Source of the DNA: Pseudomonas phage Max
Sequence record: PP661416.1
Strand: one strand, 5' to 3'
DNA: 61,753 nucleotides
Both the position numbers and the translations under genes were made by a program. Of the stretch, positions 4,154-59,905 are shown piece after piece (positions within the stretch are counted from its first letter, which is position 1; each line of letters begins with the position of its first letter). Under the pieces are notes generated by a model that made no database searches, had not been told where the DNA came from, and saw only the letters and a list, made by a program, of their open reading frames with translations.

Positions 4154-4208
4154 GATGGTTTCTCCATTTCGTTGATGCCGCCGGAATGGTCCGGCGGCGA
4201 GGTTTCGA

Positions 4209-5755: not shown

Positions 5756-5809
5756 CTTGGTTCTCCATTTCAGTTGAAAACGGCGGAGCCGGAGCCCCGC
5801 CCGGGTTGC

Positions 5810-7252: not shown

Positions 7253-7278
7253 AGTTCAACTCCTCATCTATTGCGAAA

Positions 7279-7306
7279 AAGTCTAGTGCCTTACCCGGAA
7301 GAAGTA
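7279..7306 (-). promoter_or_regulatory. sigma70-like promoter (minus strand: -35 TTTACT, 17-bp spacer, -10 TAGACT), member of the repeated promoter family
   Basis: Plus-strand gaagaagtaaag...agtcta. Intergenic between 7324 and 7252. Confidence 0.5.
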
Positions 7307-7323
7307 AAGCACTATGAATTGGG

Positions 7324-8160
7324 TCACTCCCCGATGTTCCAGAACACGATGGGGCGTGGATGGACGGAAGCCAGGTTGAGCGGGTCACTCAGCCACTTCC
7401 AAGCCTTCAGATCATAGAACGGGTTGCAGGGGAACGGGGCGGAGGCGTCCCGGGCCGCGTCCGCGTACCCGTAGCCCTCGTCAATGAACTTGATCCGGTC
7501 GCCCAAGGTCAGGCCCGCGGCCTTCTCGATGTACTCCCGGGTGGCGTCCTGGCTCCGCGAGTATCCCATGTGGAGGATGACGTTGTAGTTGCGGAGCAGG
7601 CCCGCCTCCTCGAAGCCCTTGAGCACCCCGGCGGCGACCGTCCCCGAGCTGATACTGATGACCAGGGTCCCGGAGTCCGGGAGGTGCGGGGCGGTGCGGA
7701 CGGCCTCCGCGGCGTTCTCCGGGATCGACTCCGGGAGCTTCAGGGCGTTCGGCATCAGGTAGCTGTCGTGGTAGTTCTCCCGCAGGTGCTTCTTGGCCGT
7801 ATGGTACAGGATCGCGGAGCGGCCCGCCGGGATGTCCACGAGGTCCGCCCCGAGCTGGCGAGCGTGCTGCTGTTGGACGCGCGGGGCGTCCGCGGCCCCG
7901 TCGCGCTTGAAGCGGGGCCAGTAGTCCACGGCCTGTTTCCCGAGCTGCTGGCAAACGTAGGCGACCGCCCAGCCCGCCTTCGAGTGGTACGTGTCCAGAC
8001 AGCCGATGGTGGTCTCAGGCCGGTTCTTGATATGGGCGACAACTCCGCGAATCTTGCTGAAGGACGGACCCGGGAGCGGGGCGCACAGGTCCTCCCGCTT
8101 CACGAGGATCGGGACCCCGTTGAGCTCATAGGTTTCGACCGGGGTGTTGTTGACGATCAT
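7324..8160 (-). CDS. PLP-dependent enzyme, fold type II (ACC deaminase / D-cysteine desulfhydrase-like)
   Basis: VKREDL...SFSKIRG lysine motif. Start reset to the ATG at 8160 (AAGGAG RBS, ATGA-type junction with the upstream stop at 8162). Confidence 0.6.
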   Translation of the reverse strand: MIVNNTPVETYELNGVPILVKREDLCAPLPGPSFSKIRGVVAHIKNRPETTIGCLDTYHSKAGWAVAYVCQQLGKQAVDYWPRFKRDGAADAPRVQQQHARQLGADLVDIPAGRSAILYHTAKKHLRENYHDSYLMPNALKLPESIPENAAEAVRTAPHLPDSGTLVISISSGTVAAGVLKGFEEAGLLRNYNVILHMGYSRSQDATREYIEKAAGLTLGDRIKFIDEGYGYADAARDASAPFPCNPFYDLKAWKWLSDPLNLASVHPRPIVFWNIGE

Positions 8161-10004: not shown

Positions 10005-10055
10005 GGTAGGCTCCTTTTCTGGGGTTGAGGTGCGATCTTGTTCGACCGTGAGAGA

Positions 10056-10084
10056 ATCTTAACCCCAGCCCCCGAAGAAGTAAA
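10056..10084 (-). promoter_or_regulatory. sigma70-like promoter (-35 TTTACT, 17 bp, -10 TAAGAT)
   Basis: Plus-strand ccccgaagaagtaaag motif. Intergenic. Confidence 0.45.
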
Positions 10085-10103
10085 GTGGTTTGACTAAACT
10101 TTT

Positions 10104-10610
10104 TCAGGTCCCCGTCCGAAGGCCAACAACCGTTGGACGGCGGAGGGCGAACCGTTGTACAACTTCTTCCCAGAAGGCCCGGGCGGCGTCCTCGTGCCCA
10201 GGCTTCCTGTACCAATGGTTGCGCCCCGAGGTGTGCGGAACCACAGCGACCTCGAAGCCCCAGCGATCATCCGCAAACCACTGGTGGAAGTCCAGGTGCT
10301 GGGCCGGATAGCCGAAAGCCTCCGCGACGTTCCGCCCAACGAGGATGACGTGCCGACCGCCCAACAAGGGCTTCATCGCGGCTGCGGCAATCCCCGCGTC
10401 CCGGGCGGGCCACTTGTCGTCCCGCTTCCAGCGCCCAGGGAAGGTGTGGAGCAGGTTGGTGCGGTCGAAGGTCTTGAGGTAGTCCTTGGGCGATAGGCCC
10501 GCCAGCTCCGCCAGACGCCCTCCCGCGGAGGACCGCGGGAGGGGAGCCAGGGGCCGGTCCGGGTCCGTGTTAGGTCCTGGTGCTTGGCCGATCAGCAGGG
10601 GCTTGTTCAT
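10104..10610 (-). CDS. uracil-DNA glycosylase superfamily-like protein
   Basis: LLIGQAPGPNT (GxxPG motif A) and VVPHTSGRN (HPS-like motif B). RBS GGAGG. Confidence 0.45.
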   Translation of the reverse strand: MNKPLLIGQAPGPNTDPDRPLAPLPRSSAGGRLAELAGLSPKDYLKTFDRTNLLHTFPGRWKRDDKWPARDAGIAAAAMKPLLGGRHVILVGRNVAEAFGYPAQHLDFHQWFADDRWGFEVAVVPHTSGRNHWYRKPGHEDAARAFWEEVVQRFALRRPTVVGLRTGT

Positions 10611-10755
10611 CTTCGGGTTCCTCCATTTCTTGGGTGACGTTCAGTTTGAGGGTCCGCTCCGGGACCGGGATGGCCCATTCAGCAAGGCGCATCCCGGTCA
10701 TGAGCAAGAACCCGGCGGCGATCAGCAAGACCGCCTTCAGGCTCAGTTCTTTCAC
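10570..10755 (-). CDS. possible 61-aa membrane micro-protein (GTG start overlapping the RNR stop, GTGA)
   Basis: GGAGGGAG 5 nt before the GTG. TM segment AVLLIAAGFLLMTGM. Confidence 0.3.
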   Translation of the reverse strand: MKELSLKAVLLIAAGFLLMTGMRLAEWAIPVPERTLKLNVTQEMEEPEDEQAPADRPSTRT

Positions 10756-13829: not shown

Positions 13830-13850
13830 GATGATCGTTCTCCGTTTCTG

Positions 13851-15458: not shown

Positions 15459-15506
15459 GTGGTTCTCCGTTTCTTCGGTGAGGGGGTATCCCAATCACGC
15501 TGAAGA

Positions 15507-15535
15507 AGTATAGCCGGTCAATCGGAAGAAGTAAA
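15507..15535 (-). promoter_or_regulatory. sigma70-like promoter (-35 TTTACT, 17 bp, -10 TATACT)
   Basis: Plus-strand gaagaagtatag...ggaagaagtaaag. Confidence 0.5.
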
Positions 15536-15871
15536 GAGGCCCGAGGCGTCCACCGCGATGTAGCGTTGGTCCTTGCCGCTCCACTGGAGCAGGGACACGT
15601 CCCCGTCATTGGCGTCCGCGGCGATGGCGACGGCGAACCCGATCAGGACCGGATTGCCCACGAGCAGGAGGTGGTCCCCCGGCCCGAAGTCGGCCAGCTT
15701 CTCCTTCAGCTCGTCAATGATGGGCTCCGGGCGGAACGGGGCCGCGGTCGGGCTGAGCAGGAACACCAGCTCACCGAACTCCTCCGCCGGGGCGAGGTTG
15801 AATTTGGGCTCGAACCGCTGCTTGTCGCGGTCCCAGCGGTGTTGGTTCTGTACAACAAATACACGGCTCAT
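15518..15871 (-). CDS. hypothetical protein
   Basis: 117 aa, high GC3, 8-nt gap to the SNF2 stop. Confidence 0.5.
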   Translation of the reverse strand: MSRVFVVQNQHRWDRDKQRFEPKFNLAPAEEFGELVFLLSPTAAPFRPEPIIDELKEKLADFGPGDHLLLVGNPVLIGFAVAIAADANDGDVSLLQWSGKDQRYIAVDASGLFTSSD

Positions 15872-17573: not shown

Positions 17574-17599
17574 AGGGTGGCTCCATTTCTCATAGTGAT

Positions 17600-17660
17600 G
17601 CCCGGAAGTATAGCCCAGCTGGGCGGCGAAGGCGAGCGGAGAATCATGTGCGCTTGGGAC
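17600..17660 (-). promoter_or_regulatory. promoter for the SNF2 operon: -10 TATACT with a poor -35 and an upstream CCCAAGCGCA box at about -50
   Basis: Plus-strand ggaagtatag at 17605-17614 and tgcgcttggg at 17649-17658. Confidence 0.35.
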
Positions 17661-17744
17661 GGGGGCCCAACGCTCGACTTCGTGCGCTGAAGAAGTATGA
17701 AGTGGAGTAGGCAGGGAAGCCCAGCGGGGCTGGGGGTTTATATA

Positions 17745-17763
17745 TTCTTCTTCTTCTTCTTCT
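17745..17763. repeat. (TTC)6 microsatellite
   Basis: ttcttcttcttcttcttc. Confidence 0.9.
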
Positions 17764-17797
17764 TAACTTACTTAACTTACTTACCTTAAACCCCTGG
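17760..17797. repeat. 38-bp block ttcttaacttacttaacttacttaccttaaAcccctgg (tandem CTTAACTTA units), region A copy; near-identical to 43874..43911
   Basis: 37/38 identity with the region B copy. Confidence 0.9.
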
Positions 17798-17854
17798 ACG
17801 GCCTCCGAACAGCAGGAACGGTCGCCGGTCGCCTCCCTGGGCAGGGGGTCCGGG

Positions 17855-17997
17855 CGATTTATCGGGCGAAGTAGAACTGAACTGGAGAAAGTGAAGTAAC
17901 CTAAGCGCAGGAGGGTCGGAGCTGTTACGGCGCTGGGCTTTCGATGGCGCTTGGGGTCTATACTTCTTCAGGTGTGAAGGTAAGTAGCCCAAGCGCA
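17855..17997. promoter_or_regulatory. region A regulatory module: CGATTTATCGGGCGAA, AAGTAACCTAAGCGCA, a plus-strand -10 TATACT (17959-17964) and CCCAAGCGCA (17988-17997). Collinear with region B
   Basis: Same element order and spacing as 43970..44118. Confidence 0.5.
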
Positions 17998-18000
17998 TCC

Positions 18001-26516: not shown

Positions 26517-29339
26517 TCAACTGTTCACAACCTGGCGGACCGCGCCAGCGTTGCGTTGGATCACGTTCAGCAGGACCCGCTCGCCCGAGGAGCTGGTCAG
26601 GTAGTCCTGCATCAGGTTCGGGTCGATCACGTTCACAACCCGGATCGCGGACCCACCGCCCTGCTGCCCCTCGCCACCGCCCTGACGCGCTTCGTCCCGC
26701 TCCTGGGTCGGAGTACGGACAGACACCTGTTCGCCAGGCGTAGCACGGAAGGCGACCAGTTGCGAGTCCGTCCCGCCCGTCCCGCCCACGGTGAAGTCGC
26801 CGCCGAAGGCAAAGCCCGGCGTTTGGGCGATGATCTGGGCGACGTTCGCAGCCGCCACCGCTCCGGTCGCCGCCGCGAGGGCGTAGTTGGCCGGGGGCGG
26901 AGCGGAGGCAAGGGCCTTCTGAACCGCCAGCACGCCGTCAATGGTCGCCGTGGTGATCGCCGCCGCCTTGCCGATTGCCGCCAGCTTCTTGTTCTCCGAC
27001 CGGGACAGCCCGGACAGGGTGGAGAAGAAGTTGCGCTGGGTGGACAGGTTCTGCTCAGTGATCTGGGCCTGGACCCGAGCCTTCAATTGCTGGGCGGTCT
27101 GCTCGCTGATGAGGTCGGCTTGCCGCATCTCATCAATCCGCGCGTACATCTGCTCATACTGCGACAACATCGCCTGCTGGGCTTCGACCGTACCCGCGAG
27201 AAGGTCCGCGTTGGACTCCACCAGGAACTGGTTTGCCTGGGCCTGCGTGATCGCCCCCGCGGCCAGCAGCTCGTTGATCGCCGTGAGCTGGGCGGTGAAC
27301 TCCTGCTGGGGTCCGAGGATCGCCTGAAGGACCTGGTTGCGGGTTTCCGCCGCCCGGGTTTCCGCCTGAATCAGGGTCAGCTTCTCGCGGAGCTGCTTCA
27401 GCTCCTGCTCCCCGAGCATCACGCCCTGATAGCGCAGGTCCTGCTCGATGTAGCGCAACTGCTGTTCGACCTCGCGCTGCTCCGAGGTGAGGCGCAGCAG
27501 ATCGCGCTCCTCCTCCAGCTGACGGTTGATCGCGCCCATCGGGTCCAGGGCGTCCTTCAGCTGCTCTTGGATCAGGGCGAGGACCTGAGCCTTGCGCTCC
27601 GAAGTGATCAGGCCCGCGCGCTCCGCCTTCTCCAGGAGGGAGAGGGCGTTGGCGTACTCCTGCTGAGCGGCCCAGACACGGTCATAGGACCCGACCAGTT
27701 GGTTGAGTTCGTCCTGGAGTTTCTTGAGGGCCTTGGCCGCCTCCTCATCGCCTTTCCCGGAGGTCCGGCGACCGCCCCCACCGCCGCCCAGGTCTGGCGT
27801 CTCGACTTGAGCCGCGGCGACCCGCTCCTTGGAAATGTCGCGGGCGCGTTCGATCCAGCTGTCCAGCATCGCCTCCAACCCACTTTCGGATTGGGCGAGG
27901 ACTTCTTGGCGGAAGCCTTCCTCAAAGTTCGTGCCGATGTTGGCGCCAACGGCCTTCCAGCCCTCGATGTTGCCGGTCACCGCGGCCTTCAGGCCGTCCA
28001 CGTCAAGGTCCACCGCCGCCTTCAGGGCGTTCCCGAGCTGGCGGAAGTTGTTCATCAGCGCGTCAATGACGGAGCCCACGACATTGAGGACCCCCCGCAT
28101 CACGCCCCGGATCGTCCCGCCGATCATGTCGAACACCTGGAGGACGGTGCGCACCAGCTTCAACCACCACGCTTCCTGGTTCTGGACGCTGGCCCCGGCC
28201 TGGTCGGTCATGTTCTCATAGGCCGTCGCCGCGGAGCCGGTCAGCCAGTTGAAGAACTCCCCGACCGTATTGGCGAGGCCGGTGATGATCGGGCCGATGT
28301 CCTCCCAGGCGGCGCGCATCAGATCGCCCAGAGTGGTCGTGTCGTCAATCCCCAGCTTGATTTCGTCCCGGAACAGGGTCAGGGCTGTGATCACGGAGGT
28401 GAGGACGATCAGGAATGCGCCCAAGGGGTTCGCGGCGATGGCGGCGTTGAGGGCGATAACGGCGGTGCGGACGGCGTTGAACGCTGCCGCGCCTCCGGCG
28501 ACGATAGCGAAGCCCGCACCCACCGACAGGAGGACCTTGGCGATGGTGTCCAGGTTGTTGCTGATGAACATGATCGCCTTGGACAGCAGTTCGCTCGCGC
28601 CGGTCGCCTCATCGAACTTACCAACCAGGTCCACCACGTTGTTCTGGAGGACTTGGAAGGACTGGCCGATGGTGGGGACGGACTTGGCAAACCGCTCCTC
28701 CAGCTCCGTCCGGGCGTTCTTGAAGGCGTCGAAGATGATGTCAGCGCTGATTTTGCCATCCTGGCCCATCTGACGGAGTTCGCCGCGGGTCACGTTCAGC
28801 TGCTTGGCGATCACGTCTGCGACGGTCGGCAGCTGTTCCAGGACGGAGTTCAGTTCATCGCCGCGGAGGACGCCCGAGGCGAGGCCCTGGGCCAGCTGGA
28901 TCATACCAGCTTGAGCCTCGCCCGCGCTCGCGCCGGACAGGGCGATGGCTTGGTTCAGCGACTTCGTGAAGTCGATCAGCTCCTGCTGCGACAGGCCCAG
29001 GTCCTTCGCGCTGTTGGCCAATCGGCTGTACGTCTCCACCGTACCCTCCAGGGACTGGCGGGTGGAGTTCGAGACGTCAAGCAGCGACCGATACACCGCC
29101 CCGAGGTTCTGGGCCTCAAGGCCCGTCGCCCGGAGTCGGTTCTGGAGGTTGGTGTAGGTGTCCAGCAGGCGCACGAGTTCGCGCGCAGACAGGTACGCGC
29201 CCAGGGAGGCCAGGGCGTTCTTGAGGAAGTCCACCCCGCCCGCGGCTCCGCGCCCGGACTTCCCGATGTCCTCCAGGTTTCGCTGAACGACACGCGAACC
29301 TCGTTCAGTGATGACTATGTCAATGCGTTCTTCGGCCAC
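26517..29339 (-). CDS. tape measure protein
   Basis: 940 aa, long coiled-coil, GTG start with GGGGAG 6 nt upstream, follows the G/GT chaperones. Confidence 0.85.
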   Translation of the reverse strand: MAEERIDIVITERGSRVVQRNLEDIGKSGRGAAGGVDFLKNALASLGAYLSARELVRLLDTYTNLQNRLRATGLEAQNLGAVYRSLLDVSNSTRQSLEGTVETYSRLANSAKDLGLSQQELIDFTKSLNQAIALSGASAGEAQAGMIQLAQGLASGVLRGDELNSVLEQLPTVADVIAKQLNVTRGELRQMGQDGKISADIIFDAFKNARTELEERFAKSVPTIGQSFQVLQNNVVDLVGKFDEATGASELLSKAIMFISNNLDTIAKVLLSVGAGFAIVAGGAAAFNAVRTAVIALNAAIAANPLGAFLIVLTSVITALTLFRDEIKLGIDDTTTLGDLMRAAWEDIGPIITGLANTVGEFFNWLTGSAATAYENMTDQAGASVQNQEAWWLKLVRTVLQVFDMIGGTIRGVMRGVLNVVGSVIDALMNNFRQLGNALKAAVDLDVDGLKAAVTGNIEGWKAVGANIGTNFEEGFRQEVLAQSESGLEAMLDSWIERARDISKERVAAAQVETPDLGGGGGGRRTSGKGDEEAAKALKKLQDELNQLVGSYDRVWAAQQEYANALSLLEKAERAGLITSERKAQVLALIQEQLKDALDPMGAINRQLEEERDLLRLTSEQREVEQQLRYIEQDLRYQGVMLGEQELKQLREKLTLIQAETRAAETRNQVLQAILGPQQEFTAQLTAINELLAAGAITQAQANQFLVESNADLLAGTVEAQQAMLSQYEQMYARIDEMRQADLISEQTAQQLKARVQAQITEQNLSTQRNFFSTLSGLSRSENKKLAAIGKAAAITTATIDGVLAVQKALASAPPPANYALAAATGAVAAANVAQIIAQTPGFAFGGDFTVGGTGGTDSQLVAFRATPGEQVSVRTPTQERDEARQGGGEGQQGGGSAIRVVNVIDPNLMQDYLTSSSGERVLLNVIQRNAGAVRQVVNS

Positions 29340-32969: not shown

Positions 32970-33491
32970 TCACCCCCGCAGCAACGTGCCGCCGGAGCGG
33001 ACAAGGCCCGCGCGGACCAGCTTCTGGTCCGCCGCCGGGTATTTGGGCATCTGGAACACGGCCCCGCCCACGAAGGTGACGGACTCGCTGATGGGTCCGA
33101 CCGCTTCCGACTTCGACAGGACCGCCACGCCCGAGGCGTTCCGCTCCGGGTCCGGGTTCAGCTCCGCGGCGAGGGCGCGCAGGGCGTACTCCGCGCAGGC
33201 TTCCTTCACCTCCGGCGGGATGTCGTTGATGTAGTAGCGGTCACGGTCCCAGGCGTCCGTCCGGGGCCATTCCGTGGTCTGGTCACGGCCCAGCCGCTTC
33301 TTGCCCACGAAGTTGAACCGCTGGTCCAGGTAGTCGGTCGCGCGGATGACCGCGGCCTCAATCTGGGGGTCCGCGGAGCCCGCGAAGGAGTTGCCCCGGT
33401 CGGTGTGGTAGGTCTTGAACTCCTCCACGCTGATGTAGGCGTTCGCCCCGGCGACGGCTCCCGTGTTGTCTTGGACGATCAAGGCCATCAC
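32970..33491 (-). CDS. head-tail connector/adaptor protein (gp6-like)
   Basis: MMALIVQDNTGAVAGANAYISVEEFKTY...AAVIRATDYLD pattern typical of phage adaptors. Confidence 0.5.
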   Translation of the reverse strand: MMALIVQDNTGAVAGANAYISVEEFKTYHTDRGNSFAGSADPQIEAAVIRATDYLDQRFNFVGKKRLGRDQTTEWPRTDAWDRDRYYINDIPPEVKEACAEYALRALAAELNPDPERNASGVAVLSKSEAVGPISESVTFVGGAVFQMPKYPAADQKLVRAGLVRSGGTLLRG

Positions 33492-34533: not shown

Positions 34534-35099
34534 TGTTGGTTCTCCGGTTGCGGTAGGGTACACAGCTGGACGGCGGACCGCGCCCAAGCCTGAAGGGCGG
34601 TCAGTTTCCTGATGGCCCGGTCGCCGTCTGCGGCGATTCCCCAGAGAGCTGCCGAAGTCTCTGGCGCAAGTTCGGCTGTTCCGGCTCCATCAGCTCCGCC
34701 GGGGGCGGACTCAGCCGCACCGGATCGGGCCGCACCACAAGAGGAGACTTGGAGGCGCAGCCGCTGATTGCCAGACCGCAGATCAGCAATAGTGCGCTCA
34801 TCCCGCGCCCGGGCGTCCGCTTGCTGTTGGGCGAACTCCGCCCGGAGGTCTGCGACACGCTGTTCATGGGCTTTCTCCTGTTCACGGTTCTTGTCGTTGG
34901 CCTCAGCCAGGAGGCGTTCCTGCTCCCGTTCCCGGGCGCGGACCTCCTCCTTGTATTTGTCCAGGGCCTCCGCCGCCTCCGCGGTCGCGTCCGCCTTCCC
35001 GGAACCATAGCCGAAGCCGTAGCCCGCGAGGGCGATCAAGGCGACGGCGAGCAGGACGCCCGCCGCGGCCCAGACCTTGGAGGAGGGGAAGCCGAACAC
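34530..35099 (-). CDS. i-spanin (Rz-like)
   Basis: N-terminal TM, coiled coil, DLRSGNQRLRLQ, embedded lipoprotein ORF. Confidence 0.65.
   Translation of the reverse strand: MFGFPSSKVWAAAGVLLAVALIALAGYGFGYGSGKADATAEAAEALDKYKEEVRAREREQERLLAEANDKNREQEKAHEQRVADLRAEFAQQQADARARDERTIADLRSGNQRLRLQVSSCGAARSGAAESAPGGADGAGTAELAPETSAALWGIAADGDRAIRKLTALQAWARSAVQLCTLPQPENQQ
34601..34801 (-). CDS. o-spanin (Rz1-like lipoprotein) embedded in the +1 frame of the i-spanin gene
   Basis: MSALLLICGLAISGC lipobox, then a Pro-rich segment PLVVRPDPVRLSPPPAEL. Confidence 0.6.
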   Translation of the reverse strand: MSALLLICGLAISGCASKSPLVVRPDPVRLSPPPAELMEPEQPNLRQRLRQLSGESPQTATGPSGN

Positions 35100-37535: not shown

Positions 37536-37730
37536 GATTGGCCCTCCTTCAGAAGTTGATGACTCAAGCGGTTTTCAGCCGTGCCGGATCACCCGGTGTT
37601 CCGTCGCGGCCCGCGGAATCACTCCTGTGGGCCTTCGCCTCTGGCTATACAACCAAAAGTGACGTCAGTATAGTACCAAGTTGCGAAAAAGGGAAGCCCC
37701 CTGGCCAAACTTGGGGGCCTCCCCGATCCG

Positions 37731-39790: not shown

Positions 39791-39905
39791 CCCGCTTCTC
39801 CATTTCTTTGGGTCCGTTCATGCCGAAGTGGATACACGCCCCGATCAGCGGCCCGAGGACGATGCTCAGGAGGAGCCAAAGCCCCAAGAAGTGCCAGACG
39901 TTCAT
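39774..39905 (-). CDS. possible 43-aa membrane micro-protein coupled between the portal and head-morphogenesis genes
   Basis: GGAGGTGAG 2 nt before the ATG, which overlaps the portal stop (ATGA). MNVWHFLGLWLLLSIVLGPLIGACIHF. Confidence 0.3.
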   Translation of the reverse strand: MNVWHFLGLWLLLSIVLGPLIGACIHFGMNGPKEMEKRDAHIQ

Positions 39906-43566: not shown

Positions 43567-43656
43567 CACGCTCCCCCTTCGGTGTGTACTGTTCGTCAAT
43601 CGCGCATCACGCGGCGATCCGTCCCCGGCCTCACGCCCAAGGACATCCTCGCGGCG

Positions 43657-43685
43657 AGTATAGCGTGAGCTTGTACATTAGCCAA
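43657..43685 (-). promoter_or_regulatory. candidate late promoter (-35 TTGGCT, 17 bp, -10 TATACT), about 100 nt upstream of TerS
   Basis: Plus-strand gagtatagcg...attagccaag. Confidence 0.4.
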
Positions 43686-43852
43686 GGGTGGGTCGCGCTC
43701 GCCCGCGGGGGAGACACGAGGAGCGTGTGGCAGCGGATTGCCCAAGCAGGCACGCAGCGTCCTCCGCTTAGGTTCGAGGGGTCGCGCTTCACTTCCACGT
43801 CCGAAAAAGTAAAAAGTCAAGCGGGCAAAAAGGCCATATAAAACAGCCCTTT

Positions 43853-43874
43853 ATAGATAGATAGATAGATAGAT
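43853..43874. repeat. (GATA)5 microsatellite
   Basis: atagatagatagatagatagat. Confidence 0.9.
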
Positions 43875-43911
43875 TCTTAACTTACTTAACTTACTTACCT
43901 TAACCCCCTGG
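43874..43911. repeat. 38-bp block ttcttaacttacttaacttacttaccttaaCcccctgg, region B copy of 17760..17797
   Basis: 37/38 identity. Confidence 0.9.
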
Positions 43912-43969
43912 GAGCCCTTCGGACACCAGAAAGCCTCAACAAGGATTCTCTTGGGCCGGTCCGCCGGGT

Positions 43970-44118
43970 CGATTTGTCGGGCGAATTTATTTCAGGTAAG
44001 AATCCCAAGTAACCTAAGCGCAAGGTGCGGGAACCCCAGACGGGCTTGACTTCCCGCCACGCCTTGCTTCATACTTTTTCGGAGCCGAACCCAAGCGCAC
44101 TCCCGTAACCCAAGCGCA
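43970..44118. promoter_or_regulatory. region B regulatory module: CGATTTGTCGGGCGAA, AAGTAACCTAAGCGCA, a plus-strand promoter TTGACT-18-CATACT (44046..44075) and two CCCAAGCGCA boxes (44090, 44109)
   Basis: Collinear with region A. The plus-strand promoter points into the 3' end of the early operon. Confidence 0.5.
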
Positions 44119-44233
44119 CCCGGTCGAAGTGGAGAAGGAGGAGGGAGCCCCGCCGGTTTTCCCGCAGCCTTCGGCCTCCTGTAGTGAAGTCGGCACCATT
44201 GCCGCCCGGCGGGGCATTGATCGTGAGGGCTGG

Positions 44234-46384: not shown

Positions 46385-46795
46385 TCAGTCGATGGCGGCG
46401 ATGATTTCCTCAGCCTCCGGGTGGTCGAAGGCGAAGTCACGCAGCTTGTAGAACAGGTCCACGTAGTCCTGGCGCTGCGGGTACTTCCAGCAGAGGGCGT
46501 TGAACACGAACAGGCAGGTGATCAGGCCCGCGGCGTCTCCGCTGACCTCGCCCGAGTAGCCGTTGGTGTCCACGGTCAGTCGCAGCTTTCGGTTCTCAAT
46601 CGCCGGGGCCAGGTACATCGCGCCGTTGGACAGCTTGTACATGTACCAGTACGCGCCGTTGTACTCCTCGCACATCTTCTGGAGGTGGCTGTACATGGCC
46701 ATTTCGACCCGGAGGAAGTCCGCCCCGAAGTGGGCCGGGAGGACCTGGAGGCGCTGGTCATCGTTGTCGATGCGGGTGGCTGTGATCTTGCTCAT
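46385..46795 (-). CDS. antirestriction protein, ArdB/KlcA family
   Basis: LPAHFGADFL...CEEYNGAYWYMYKLSNGAMYLAP...GEVSGDAAGLITCLF...DHPEAEEIIAAID aligns along its length with E. coli KlcA. First gene after the promoter at 46829..46857. Confidence 0.75.
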   Translation of the reverse strand: MSKITATRIDNDDQRLQVLPAHFGADFLRVEMAMYSHLQKMCEEYNGAYWYMYKLSNGAMYLAPAIENRKLRLTVDTNGYSGEVSGDAAGLITCLFVFNALCWKYPQRQDYVDLFYKLRDFAFDHPEAEEIIAAID

Positions 46796-46828
46796 GTTGA
46801 GTTCTCCATTTCTGATTGAGGTGAAGAA

Positions 46829-46857
46829 AGTATAGTGTGGGCTCCCGAAGAAGTAAA
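46829..46857 (-). promoter_or_regulatory. sigma70-like promoter (-35 TTTACT, 17 bp, -10 TATACT) + conserved RBS cassette
   Basis: gtgaagaaagtatagtg...cgaagaagtaaag. Confidence 0.5.
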
Positions 46858-46871
46858 GCCCCGCCGGGTGT

Positions 46872-47346: not shown

Positions 47347-48231
47347 TCAGTCCTCCAGCACCGCGATCCGCTGGACAACGGTTTGGGCCTGGCCGCGGTA
47401 CTCCGCGTGCTCCTTCACGGGGGCCTTGATCTTCAGCTCCTCGCCTTCCTCCGCGTAGAAGGCCCCGGACTTCGACACGAGGCAGGCCCCGGTCGCGCGG
47501 TCGATCATCGTGATGATGTGGACCGTCTCGATGCCATAGCCGTTCCAGGCGTCCCGGGCGAAGGTGTAGCGGCGCACCACGGTCACGTCGAAGGTCATGC
47601 GCTTCTTCGGCTCGCCCACGTACAGGTCGGGCTTCGGCTTCGGCAGGGCGAGGTGCGGGACCCGGCGGGCGACCTCCTGGGCGGTCAGGCGCATCAGGCC
47701 TCCTTCCTCGAAGTCCGGCAGGGTGTCGATCAACCAGCTGATGTAGCCCCGCGGGGCCTCGTGGAACTCCTTGCCCGCGTAGGGTCCGAAGGCGAACTTG
47801 CCGCCCAGGATGGTCTGGCGCTTCTCCTCCTCCTCCGCGGCCCGTTCCGCGGCCCAGCGGTCCTCGCGCTCCTTCCGCTCACGCTCCCGGCGCTCCAGCT
47901 CCGCGGCGTTGGCGCGGTGAATCGCGTTCATTTCCTCCCGGAGGGAGTCGCGGGAGGTCGTGAGCTTCAGGCCCATGCGCTCAGAGGCTTCCTGGGCCTT
48001 CTCGAAGGCTTCATCAGGGTCCTGGCTCAGGTTCTTCACATGGTAGCTGCGGACCTCGAAGGAGCCCTGATACACGCCATTCACCACGGCGTTGCCCATG
48101 GGGCCAGGACCCGGGACGGCCTTCAGCTCCGTTTCGCGGAGGGTGAAGAAGCAGCCCAGCTCCCCGACTCCGATGAACAGGGTGGGGACGAAGGTGGAGG
48201 GGTTCAGGGTGCGGTTGTGGATGTTGTACAT
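47347..48231 (-). CDS. hypothetical protein with a DUF3820-like C-terminal region
   Basis: Start MYNIHNRT with AAGGAG. FGPYAGKEFHEAPRGYISWLID. Confidence 0.45.
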   Translation of the reverse strand: MYNIHNRTLNPSTFVPTLFIGVGELGCFFTLRETELKAVPGPGPMGNAVVNGVYQGSFEVRSYHVKNLSQDPDEAFEKAQEASERMGLKLTTSRDSLREEMNAIHRANAAELERRERERKEREDRWAAERAAEEEEKRQTILGGKFAFGPYAGKEFHEAPRGYISWLIDTLPDFEEGGLMRLTAQEVARRVPHLALPKPKPDLYVGEPKKRMTFDVTVVRRYTFARDAWNGYGIETVHIITMIDRATGACLVSKSGAFYAEEGEELKIKAPVKEHAEYRGQAQTVVQRIAVLED

Positions 48232-48255
48232 GATCAGGCTCCTTTTCTTGGGTGG

Positions 48256-48275
48256 GGGAGGGCCTGAGCCCTCCC
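48256..48275 (-). terminator. GC hairpin GGGAGGGC-CTGA-GCCCTCCC
   Basis: Intergenic, perfect 8-bp stem. Confidence 0.3.
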
Positions 48276-48281
48276 GGTCGA

Positions 48282-48545
48282 TCACAGCTGGCCGAACTTC
48301 CAGAGGGTCTGGCGACCTCCGCGAGGTCCGAAGCCGATCAGCTCCAGGGAGCCGTCCGCGCGGAGGACCAGCATGTTGATCCGGCGGATCGCGCGGTCAC
48401 CGGCGAAGGTCCGGGCGGCGCTGGCCTTCGCTTCGCGCAAGGTCGGCAATTTCATGCGGTTCTCGACTTCGCCCAGGGAGGCGAGCAGGCCCATGTCGAT
48501 CAGTTCGCGGGCAGCGTGGGTCTGGGGCGGGAGGATCAGGCTCAT
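48282..48545 (-). CDS. hypothetical protein (first gene after the promoter at 48585..48614)
   Basis: GAAATGGAGAACTGAA-ATG. Confidence 0.45.
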   Translation of the reverse strand: MSLILPPQTHAARELIDMGLLASLGEVENRMKLPTLREAKASAARTFAGDRAIRRINMLVLRADGSLELIGFGPRGGRQTLWKFGQL

Positions 48546-48584
48546 TTCAGTTCTCCATTTCTACAAGTTGTTCAACGTGAAGAA

Positions 48585-48614
48585 AGTATAGTGCCATTCA
48601 CCCGAAGAAGTAAA
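48585..48614 (-). promoter_or_regulatory. sigma70-like promoter (-35 TTTACT, 17 bp, -10 TATACT)
   Basis: gtgaagaaagtatagtg...cgaagaagtaaag. Confidence 0.5.
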
Positions 48615-48647
48615 GCCCCAGAACAAACTTTTTTCGACCCGCGAGGA

Positions 48648-49284: not shown

Positions 49285-49330
49285 GATGTTCTCCATTTCT
49301 GTGGTTGCCGTTCTTGTTGAACGTGAAGAA

Positions 49331-49359
49331 AGTATAGTGGGGGCTCCCGAAGAAGTAAA
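49331..49359 (-). promoter_or_regulatory. sigma70-like promoter (-35 TTTACT, 17 bp, -10 TATACT)
   Basis: gtgaagaaagtatagtg...cgaagaagtaaag. Confidence 0.5.
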
Positions 49360-49384
49360 GCCCCCTCATACAACTTTCTTCGAT

Positions 49385-49576
49385 TCACGGCAACTTGTGG
49401 CGGTCCCGACAGGGCGCACAGACTCCTCCCACCAGCCTCCCGCTCCATTCGCCACACAGGTCGCAGTCGCCCGGCTCCCCGGGCGGTATCTTCGCCGCGG
49501 CCTCCGCGATCCGGGCCACTTCGCGGTCCGTGTCGTGGAGGATGCGGTCATTGCTCAAGTCGATTTCGTCAGCCAA
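49385..49576 (-). CDS. TraR/DksA-type C4 zinc-finger protein
   Basis: CDLCGEWSGRLVGGVCAPC. Confidence 0.5.
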   Translation of the reverse strand: MADEIDLSNDRILHDTDREVARIAEAAAKIPPGEPGDCDLCGEWSGRLVGGVCAPCRDRHKLP

Positions 49577-51107: not shown

Positions 51108-51133
51108 GTTTGTTCTCCGTTTCTGTCGGGTTG

Positions 51134-54446: not shown

Positions 54447-54480
54447 GATCGGGCTCCTTCGGTTCGGGGTCAGTGAAGAA

Positions 54481-54509
54481 AGTATAGTCACGGACCCCGA
54501 AGAAGTAAA
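54481..54509 (-). promoter_or_regulatory. sigma70-like promoter (-35 TTTACT, 17 bp, -10 TATACT)
   Basis: gtgaagaaagtatagtc...cgaagaagtaaag. Confidence 0.5.
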
Positions 54510-54513
54510 GTGG

Positions 54514-56434: not shown

Positions 56435-56511
56435 GATGGGTCAGCTCCTTTCCAATCTCGAATCGCGGCGTCAGTATCGGGGGTTGGTTCATTTCTCAAC
56501 TCGTGTGAAGA

Positions 56512-56540
56512 AGTATAGTGGGTCAATCCGAAGAAGTAAA
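56512..56540 (-). promoter_or_regulatory. sigma70-like promoter (-35 TTTACT, 17 bp, -10 TATACT)
   Basis: gtgaagaagtatagtg...cgaagaagtaaag. Confidence 0.5.
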
Positions 56541-56545
56541 GCGGT

Positions 56546-59195: not shown

Positions 59196-59522
59196 TCAAA
59201 AGCCCCAATATTCACGAAGGCGCTCAACCGGCGCTTTCCCGTCCTCCATCTGGATGACCCAGAGGCGAGTGCAGCCCAGAGCGGCGGCGATTTCGCGCTG
59301 GGTCTTACCCGAGCGGCGGCGGAATAGCAAGCAGACCTCGTGGGGCTTCAGTTGTCCGAGGTGCTGGCGCGGTTGATCGTCCAGGCGGCGGTCCGCTTCC
59401 CATTCACGGTAGCGGTCCGGGTGCACCCCGTACTCCTTCGCGGCCTCAATTTGGTTGAGGCCCTTGCGGCGGCGGTGTAGCAGTAGGCTTTCGCCTTTGG
59501 TTGGTGTCACTGTAGCAGACAT
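59196..59522 (-). CDS. HTH DNA-binding protein (putative transcriptional regulator)
   Basis: Start MSATVTPTK with AAGGAG. KGLNQIEAAKEYGV and TQREIAAALGCTRLWVIQMEDG helix-turn-helix-like segments. Confidence 0.5.
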   Translation of the reverse strand: MSATVTPTKGESLLLHRRRKGLNQIEAAKEYGVHPDRYREWEADRRLDDQPRQHLGQLKPHEVCLLFRRRSGKTQREIAAALGCTRLWVIQMEDGKAPVERLREYWGF

Positions 59523-59905
59523 GTACAAATCTCCTTGGTTCTTGGAAGGCGTGTCCAACGTGCGACACAGACCTCATACAGACGTTCTCGCGGAACCCGG
59601 CCCAGCATAGCAGCGGCCACCGCTCCATCGAATAGCAACCACTCAGTCTCCCCGACCTTCAGCAGGAGGAAGGCCCGGCCCCCGGCCCTGCGGCGACGGG
59701 TCAGCCAGGTCCTCTGCTGGCGGGTGAAGTGGTCCACTCGAAGCGGTCCGCCCCTGGGCGGCCAGCGTTCAGCGAACTTCAATTCAATCCAGCCCTGGTT
59801 GTAGTTCACATCCGGGGTCCCGGGCACAATGGGGTTCTCCACGCGCACCGGGTCCAGCGACCGGATGACGGGGCGGAGGGAGTCCCACATTGCGGCTTCA
59901 GACAT
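59507..59905 (-). CDS. VRR-NUC domain nuclease (PD-(D/E)xK)
   Basis: GTPDVNYNQGWIELKF...QQRTWLTRRRRAGGRAFLL matches the VRR-NUC pattern G.PD...G...ELK...S..Q..W. Confidence 0.55.
   Translation of the reverse strand: MSEAAMWDSLRPVIRSLDPVRVENPIVPGTPDVNYNQGWIELKFAERWPPRGGPLRVDHFTRQQRTWLTRRRRAGGRAFLLLKVGETEWLLFDGAVAAAMLGRVPRERLYEVCVARWTRLPRTKEICTCLLQ

Follow-up and report, generated by a model that had tools for sequence, protein, structure and literature searches.

The genome of Pseudomonas phage Max contains eight full copies of a short repeat which, judged by comparison of its sequence with a closely related phage, very probably act as promoters. The motif is real but already described: it is the ordinary conserved promoter family of the YuA phage group. 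We consider it likely that the repeats are explained as YuA-type phage promoters, with sigma70-like geometry, dependence on infection and, at some copies, an associated terminator. The additions made here are modest, and consist of a direct-repeat structure, a footprint in Bordetella phage MW2, a probable overlap between promoter and terminator, and two polymorphic copies.

Background

The window, by which we mean the whole stretch of 61,753 nucleotides that was analysed (PP661416.1), is a complete Yuavirus genome. Whole-window BLAST gave 92-98% identity to phage YuA (AM749441), with which Max is collinear apart from a few indels, but reverse-complemented and circularly permuted. Given this orientation, the genes of Max lie on the minus strand, and the packaging, structural and lysis block of YuA corresponds to window positions 18413-44138. 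Identity at this level also permits transcription starts in Max to be inferred from the YuA orthologues. The 6-kb stretch around the copy at 46829 is matched by about 70 siphoviruses of Pseudomonas aeruginosa belonging to the genus Yuavirus (94-98% identity; Churro, 185, PaTs-2 and AN14 are among them) and, more distantly, by Bordetella phages.

Promoter repeats are on record for YuA. The YuA entry AM749441 (Ceyssens et al. 2008, J Bacteriol) lists five 28-bp repeat_region features, at 7722, 10500, 22639, 29058 and 31098, annotated as 'putative sigma70 promoter requiring phage-encoded cofactor'. The transcription starts of YuA were mapped by ONT-cappable-seq (Putzeys et al. 2024, microLife, PMC10914365); that paper reports one motif shared by nine YuA promoters in the series P002-P016, termed 'phage promoters' (MEME E = 2.7e-26), and the legend to its Figure 3 says of the motif that it does 'not resemble bacterial promoters'. 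Our literature search found no temporal RNA-seq of YuA.

Promoter copies and their transcription starts

On the minus strand, positions 46820-46862 read GGCTTTACTTCTTCGGGAGCCCACACTATACTTTCTTCAC, followed by AGAAATGGAGAAC-N5-ATG. A search of the window for TTTACT-N17-TATACT with at most one mismatch returned six matches, none of them on the plus strand, while 100 shuffles yielded none (0.00). With the spacer widened to 18 nt and a position-weight scan included, the count of full copies came to eight; they share the form CTTTACTTCTTC-N11/12-CTATACTT(T)CTTC, lie on the coding (minus) strand, and none would be expected by chance. The position-weight scan scored the -35 block at 24-27 bits in all eight copies (maximum 26.6 bits) and the -10 block at 21-31 bits in six (maximum 32.2 bits), a copy with TAGACT reaching 24 bits. 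All eight occupy short intergenic gaps with a start codon 20-70 nt downstream, and the only overlap with an ORF is that of the 15507 copy, which extends over the last codons and the stop codon of the ORF upstream.

A first-pass annotation of this DNA had listed eight copy positions, every one of which is matched exactly by the pattern and position-weight scans. It had also counted at least nine near-identical copies, where we find eight full copies plus variants, and its consensus with a single 'N' between the blocks has no literal match in the window, the variable segment of the spacer being 8-9 nt long. The concern it raised that the motif might be a repeated coding or IS fragment can be laid aside, since the copies are intergenic save for the few terminal codons at 15507 and an Rfam search of the window gave no match to any family.

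Of the full copies, five have a YuA orthologue with a mapped transcription start site (TSS), as do the three variants (Putzeys et al. 2024, Table S3 of the preprint, PMC10914365). The YuA strings P006, P010, P012 and P013 are identical or near-identical to the copies at 15507, 56512, 49331 and 46829, respectively, and P008 corresponds to 10056 by position. When the start coordinates reported in Table S3 are placed on the YuA sequence, the gap from TATACT to the TSS is 6-7 nt, so that +1 is the seventh or eighth base; the first-pass annotation had made starts 6-8 nt past TATACT the condition for genuine promoters, and the YuA orthologues have them there. The TSS-equivalents given below are transferred from YuA.

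All copies described here are on the minus strand. The 56512 copy (56504-56541; -35 TTTACT at 56540-56535, -10 TATACT at 56517-56512) is the orthologue of P010 and stands before a gp28-like gene, with its TSS-equivalent at 56504 (YuA TSS 22676). The 49331 copy (49324-49360; -35 at 49359-49354, -10 at 49336-49331) is the orthologue of P012, lies before a gp42-like gene and has its TSS-equivalent at 49324 (YuA TSS 29094), and the 46829 copy (46822-46858; -35 at 46857-46852, -10 at 46834-46829), orthologous to P013, precedes the antirestriction gene at 46385-46795, with a TSS-equivalent at 46822 (YuA TSS 31134). The 15507 copy (15499-15536; -35 to -10 at 15507-15535), whose spacer contains the stop codon of the preceding ORF, is the orthologue of P006 and precedes a gp04-like gene (TSS-equivalent 15499; YuA TSS 2914). 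At the position orthologous to P008, before a gp08-like gene, the 10056 copy (10049-10085; -35 to -10 at 10056-10084) combines a full -35 block with a weak -10, TAAGAT, and its TSS is a prediction only. The 7280 copy (7272-7309; -35 to -10 at 7280-7308) has TAGACT as its -10, precedes a gp12-like radical-SAM/'photolyase' gene and is the orthologue of the YuA repeat at 10500-10527, a repeat with no reported TSS.

Six of the eight copies are thus positional orthologues standing before the same genes as in YuA, and two are extra. One of these, the 54481 copy (54474-54510; -35 at 54509-54504, -10 at 54486-54481), is absent from YuA and M6 and lies in a 44-bp indel at 54467-54510; a start at 54474 is predicted, solely by analogy. 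The other, the 48585 copy (48578-48615; -35 to -10 at 48585-48614), has an 18-nt spacer and precedes an 87-aa ORF at 48282-48545; by analogy, its TSS is predicted at 48578.

Architecture of the element

The hexamers TTTACT and TATACT are separated by 17 bp, and once by 18. The block at the -35 position is CTTTACTTCTTC(G/C)G and that at the -10 position (C)ACTATACTT(T)CTTC, and the copies in Max conform to the family definition CTTTACTTCTTC(G/C)G-N8/9-CACTATAC(T), which was tested with reference to the 28-bp repeats of AM749441. Each hexamer is embedded in a 12-bp direct repeat, CT(T/A)TACTTCTTC, whose two occurrences are 23-24 bp apart; the 12-mer takes the form CTTTACTTCTTC at -35 and CTATACTT(T)CTTC at -10, and a weight matrix built from either block also matches the other.

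In a scan for the sigma70 consensus that required at least 4/6 in each hexamer and a spacer of 16-18 bp, six of the eight copies scored 9/12 with a spacer of 17-18 nt, the 7280 (TAGACT) and 10056 (TAAGAT) copies falling below the threshold. Some copies contain GGCAC-N5-TT, which we also considered as a possible sigma54 element and rejected: 48585 alone comes within one mismatch, and it has no GC at -12. The sigma54 pattern GG-N10-GC (TGGCAC-N5-TTGC) is not enriched in the window (16 matches, 23 expected). A few copies do carry (T/A)GGCAC-N5-TTT before the -10 (48581-48596 and 7283-7300, minus strand), which would need one more matching base to make a sigma54 -24/-12 element; the resemblance is probably coincidental.

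In about 30% of the instances across relatives, the -35 hexamer is preceded, at a distance of 13-21 nt, by a conserved tract GAAAAAAGTT(G/T). Within Max it stands upstream of the 48585, 49331 and 10056 copies (for example at 48625-48640 and 49368-49385). It may represent an UP element, or else an A-tract belonging to a bidirectional terminator.

Variant promoters and the structural block

The -10-only variant GGGCTATACT (17599-17616, minus strand), which has no -35 block, is the orthologue of YuA P003 and precedes the helicase gene, with its TSS-equivalent at 17599. The first-pass annotation had described a degenerate copy at about 17600-17660, of which the -10 block, TATACT at 17607-17612, is present by itself and a copy with both blocks is not. 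Its TTGGCT-17-TATACT variant at 43657-43685 was recovered by the sequence scan. This promoter (43650-43685, minus strand; TSS-equivalent 43650) is the orthologue of YuA P014 and lies before the small terminase gene; it has none of the conserved flanks and is outside the repeat family proper. P014 was classed as sigma70 in YuA and called consistent with a 2008 promoter trap (Putzeys et al. 2024, PMC10914365); yet the fragment annotated for that trap in the YuA record is 33014-33160, and the P014 TSS, at 33417, falls about 250 nt downstream of it.

The third variant is a diverged family member, GGGGGCTTCCCTTTTTCGC-N-ACTATACT (37660-37697, minus strand), whose -35 to -10 portion, CTTCCCTTTTTCG-N-ACTATACT, occupies 37667-37695. 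Orthologous to YuA P016 (TSS-equivalent 37660), which Putzeys et al. 2024 (PMC10914365) class with the same motif family as the other YuA phage promoters, it is situated inside the structural block, with the major head gene 124 nt further downstream. The assertion that no copy lies in the structural block is accordingly true of full copies and breaks down at this variant. The differently regulated late block that had been proposed with it is in line with the YuA record, which lists three -24/-12 (sigma54) promoters of high activity in the structural region from promoter-trap assays (AM749441); the sequence of the window by itself, in which the sigma54 consensus is not enriched, does not confirm these promoters.

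The long intergenic regions that flank the structural module (17600-18000 and 43700-44230) have collinear repeats in common on the plus (antisense) strand. They include a 38-nt element, TTCTTAACTTACTTAACTTACTTACCTTAA(A/C)CCCCTGG, at 17760-17797 and 43874-43911 (97% identical), in which the YuA antisense TSS P002 falls, together with AAGTAACCTAAGCGCA, CGATTT(A/G)TCGGGCGAA, several CCCAAGCGCAC boxes and a (TCTA)n microsatellite near 43850-43875. The regions might conceivably act as an origin, in packaging or as a regulatory hub.

The ribosome-binding motif

The conserved initiation region that had been noted downstream of the promoters is borne out. The motif AGAAATGGAGAAC, a GGAG Shine-Dalgarno sequence with A-rich flanks, has ten matches in the window at up to two mismatches, where 0.81 would be expected. 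Every match lies on the minus strand and is followed after 3-7 nt by the ATG of an ORF that encodes at least 87 aa. The matches at 48550-48562 and 49288-49300 are exact, and that at 46801-46813 stands 5 nt before its ATG. Single mismatches are found at 15462-15474, 13837-13849, 5760-5772, 51112-51124 (with no promoter copy upstream) and 39795-39807 (inside the structural block), and two mismatches at 10618-10630 and 4159-4171. At 34540, where a further site had been indicated, the match is partial, CGGAGAAC.

Conservation among relatives

In Bordetella phage MW2 (Vojvodinavirus), the element occurs at six intergenic sites within the first 40 kb. Over the six equivalent sites, Max and MW2 are 96% identical in the -35 block and 83% in the -10 block, as against 45% in the spacer, 52% in the 30 nt upstream and 33% in the 20 nt downstream; TAGACT before the gp12-like gene, a peculiarity of that copy, is common to both phages. 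At the level of sequence, the 12-bp repeat is a phylogenetic footprint across two phage genera.

Metagenomic relatives with 70-99% overall identity supplied 53 distinct instances with the same blocks, the spacer being 17 nt long in 42 of them and 18 nt in 11. The underlying pattern scan of IMG/VR also returned many single chance matches in unrelated AT-rich contigs, and only 34 high-GC loci related to the window were kept. As these loci were chosen by the motif, the conservation of their -35 block is partly circular, and the comparison with MW2 is the unbiased one.

Host polymerase and the role of infection

The 50 non-structural ORFs that were compared with Pfam, PHROGs and NCBIfam include no RNA polymerase, sigma factor or MotA/AsiA-like protein. 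With hexamers at 9/12 and no phage polymerase or sigma factor among these ORFs, recognition by the host polymerase is the sensible reading. The YuA promoters P008, P010, P012 and P013 are marked 'no activity detected' in uninfected P. aeruginosa in a table note of Putzeys et al. 2024 (PMC10914365) and in a GenBank note, and an extra phage-encoded factor is invoked in that paper and in the YuA GenBank record. The 'no activity' result, which is second-hand, could reflect the assay rather than the biology. Taken together, the four inactive orthologues and the conserved 12-bp repeat suggest a factor supplied by infection, and on the basis of these negative reporter data and of the conserved bases outside the hexamers, we lean somewhat towards promoters that need something which infection provides. 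The earlier description of these sites as host-RNAP-driven early promoters therefore stands as regards promoters with sigma70-like geometry, but host polymerase acting alone is not supported, given the four YuA orthologues reported inactive in uninfected cells. Nor is an early/middle class assignable, because the published YuA starts pooled time points (Putzeys et al. 2024, PMC10914365) and early cannot be told from middle in such data.

The alternative that survives best is that these are plain autonomous sigma70 promoters of the host type, firing from injection, and that their extra conserved bases merely record the duplication of one good promoter. The hexamers at 9/12, the optimal 17-bp spacer, the start-site geometry in YuA, which is typical of sigma70, and the AT-rich discriminator would all be expected of such promoters, as would the upstream A-tracts in a subset of copies; good hexamers, and an A-tract at the UP position in about 30% of instances, leave room for autonomous activity. 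We nevertheless consider this reading unlikely. It has to explain away the four YuA orthologues without detectable activity in uninfected P. aeruginosa, as well as the retention of the flanking TCTTC and the preceding C across two genera in which the spacer was not retained, a pattern that points to selection beyond the hexamers rather than to recent duplication. Moreover, the promoter of YuA that has been classed as sigma70, TTGGCT-17-TATACT, does without those flanks (Putzeys et al. 2024, PMC10914365).

If the promoters depend on infection, as we prefer, one form that the dependence might take is a composite site, in which the tandem 12-bp repeat CT(T/A)TACTTCTTC, embedding both hexamers, would be read by a phage factor or through a state of the DNA specific to infection, and this would license the host polymerase; we put this forward tentatively, as a less likely possibility. 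Yuaviruses such as M6 carry hypermodified thymidine, and as the motif is T-rich, the state of the DNA is one candidate.

Two ORFs were considered as sources of a cofactor; both are weak leads, and neither is evidence of one. The first (49385-49576, minus strand), directly upstream of the terminator-promoter cassette at 49331, encodes 63 aa with a CxxC-N14-CxxC arrangement and a weak DksA/TraR-like zinc-finger match (phrog_54, E = 1.6e-7); its NCBIfam score was 14 bits, the cut-off being 105, and it had no match in Pfam or the PDB. It is annotated as 'RNA polymerase-binding protein' in PaTs-2, Epa38 and MW2, and the corresponding YuA stretch, 28849-29058, is without an annotated gene. The second (59196-59558, minus strand) encodes 120 aa with HTH_3 at residues 29-58 and HTH_31 at 79-111, and is annotated as 'putative repressor' in YuA (gp25) and MW2. 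A gp25-type double-HTH 'putative repressor' is thus carried by a phage that is described as virulent.

This double-HTH protein is the candidate in a further alternative, according to which the 12-bp repeats are operators and a phage protein shuts the promoters off as a timing switch. The placement of two near-identical 12-mers, 23-24 bp apart, over the -35 and the -10 would suit such a role, and the phage does encode a protein that has been called a repressor. A repressor absent from uninfected cells, however, cannot explain inactivity there; binding is putative, and since almost everything is conserved, this gene included, its co-occurrence with the motif is uninformative. We regard the operator reading as improbable.

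Gain and loss of copies

Relatives differ in whether they carry two of the copies. One is the 54481 copy, contained in a precise 44-bp indel (54467-54510) on whose flanks the direct repeat CACTGACC occurs; Max, PaTs-2 and one metagenomic contig have the cassette, whereas YuA and M6-type genomes do not. Such a structure is compatible with insertion and target duplication, or with deletion between short repeats. The second indel, in the stretch 48157-48615, takes in the 48585 promoter and the 87-aa ORF (48282-48545, phrog_15793), which are absent from YuA and present in MW2; at the deletion junction in YuA, GGGGCT from the -35 block is directly continued by a CTTCTTC that belongs to the following gene (microhomology GGGGCT..CTTCTTC).

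The exact boundaries of the 44-bp polymorphism and the breakpoint of the second indel within the -35 block might be taken to mean that the cassette, besides being a promoter, acts as a small module, mobile or recombinogenic, by which promoters and gene cassettes are spread from one phage genome to another. This is quite doubtful: there are two events only, the CAC of the flanking repeat belongs to the motif, mobility machinery such as a transposase or terminal inverted repeats is absent, and deletion between short repeats explains the same data.

Probable overlap with terminators

RNA folding places a hairpin at 49339-49365 (minus strand; GGGGGCT-loop-AGCCCCC, a 7-bp GC stem, -16.2 kcal/mol), of which the -35 element forms the loop and which is followed by the T-rich -10/discriminator; it is likely the intrinsic terminator of the upstream unit, overlapping the promoter. 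The YuA termination site T013 (29082) lies 4-5 nt past the orthologous hairpin and 12 nt before the P012 TSS, inside the P012 promoter, and is the source of the mapped 3' end, which comes from YuA only. A second hairpin, at 7284-7314 (minus strand), has 13 pairs, covers the -35 block and the spacer and reaches into the -10 hexamer, is followed by TTTTT and was flagged as terminator-like. Folding is weaker at 46829, and no hairpin was found at 56512 and 15507. Among copies and relatives the stem arms vary in sequence and keep their pairing (GGGGGCT/AGCCCCC, GCGGGGC/GTCCCGC, GTGCTTTAC/GTAAGGCAC, CCAAC/GTTGG).

Some copies probably double as terminators, and we treat this as an add-on which does not define the family, since several copies have no hairpin and termination is therefore not a family-wide function. 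That the repeat might be primarily an RNA or terminator element (hairpin and U-rich tail), its likeness to a promoter being secondary, is very improbable, for the strong hairpins at some copies, their varying but paired arms and the mapped 3' end in YuA are outweighed by the conservation of loop and tail and not of stem, by the copies with no hairpin at all and by the transcription starts mapped at the orthologues (Putzeys et al. 2024, PMC10914365).

Proposed mechanism

We propose that in infected cells the host multisubunit RNA polymerase would start 7-8 nt past TATACT, as it does at the YuA orthologues and presumably in Max, the geometry being that of a sigma70-type holoenzyme. The promoters would probably not be autonomous; infection may supply a phage-encoded cofactor or some other infection-specific condition. 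The resulting mRNA leader would be 20-70 nt long and end in a strong conserved ribosome-binding site. Where a GC-rich hairpin holds the -35 in its loop (49331, 7280 and, more weakly, 46829), it would end the upstream unit, giving a compact terminator-promoter-RBS cassette between gene modules.

Relation to known systems

The closest counterparts are the promoter repeats of YuA, which have the same sequence, stand before the same genes as six of the eight Max copies and likewise combine sigma70-like boxes with a suspected phage cofactor; Max differs in its extra copies, 54481 and 48585, and in the weakened -10 at 10056. Canonical sigma70 (RpoD) promoters are similar in their hexamers and 17-18-bp spacer, in having the TSS 7-8 nt downstream, and possibly in an UP-like A-tract. 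They differ from the YuA-type repeats in that the latter are reported to be inactive without infection (Putzeys et al. 2024, PMC10914365) and that their conserved bases extend past each hexamer by 5-6 nt on the 3' side.

Phage-directed use of host polymerase has parallels elsewhere. T4 middle promoters consist of a MotA box and a sigma70 -10, and are served by sigma appropriation through AsiA and MotA. The concept of a host sigma70 holoenzyme redirected by phage factors is the same, and several Max copies contain GCTTTA. A T4-type MotA/AsiA promoter was rejected as an identification, the Max block being at a true -35 with a 17-bp spacer and not at -30, and the ORFs scanned including nothing MotA/AsiA-like. 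T4-type phages are also said to carry regulatory cassettes termed PeSL (promoter-early stem-loop), reportedly described by Arbiol et al. in 2010. These resemble the Max elements in being short, repeated promoter and stem-loop cassettes between small variable-region genes, with indel breakpoints at the cassettes. There is, however, no sequence relationship; Max offers two indel events only, and its stem-loop is upstream of and overlaps the -35, whereas that of PeSL follows the promoter.

Conclusions

The discovery value of the repeats in Max is small, as the motif, its promoter function and the apparent need for a cofactor are on record for YuA, which is about 95% identical. The direct-repeat structure, the conservation in Vojvodinavirus and the probable overlap with terminators do not appear in the YuA GenBank annotation or in the parts of Putzeys et al. 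2024 (PMC10914365) drawn on here. The practical uses are several. In any genome of Yuavirus or Vojvodinavirus, transcription units can be annotated by means of the motif, and the element offers Pseudomonas phage engineering a promoter-RBS cassette that is compact and probably infection-dependent and may include a terminator. The analysis further defines which bases to mutate, those of the 12-bp direct repeat as against those of the hexamers. Should the composite-site reading prove true, the element would represent a mechanism kept from Pseudomonas to Bordetella phages, unlike T4 MotA/AsiA or Mu Mor/C.
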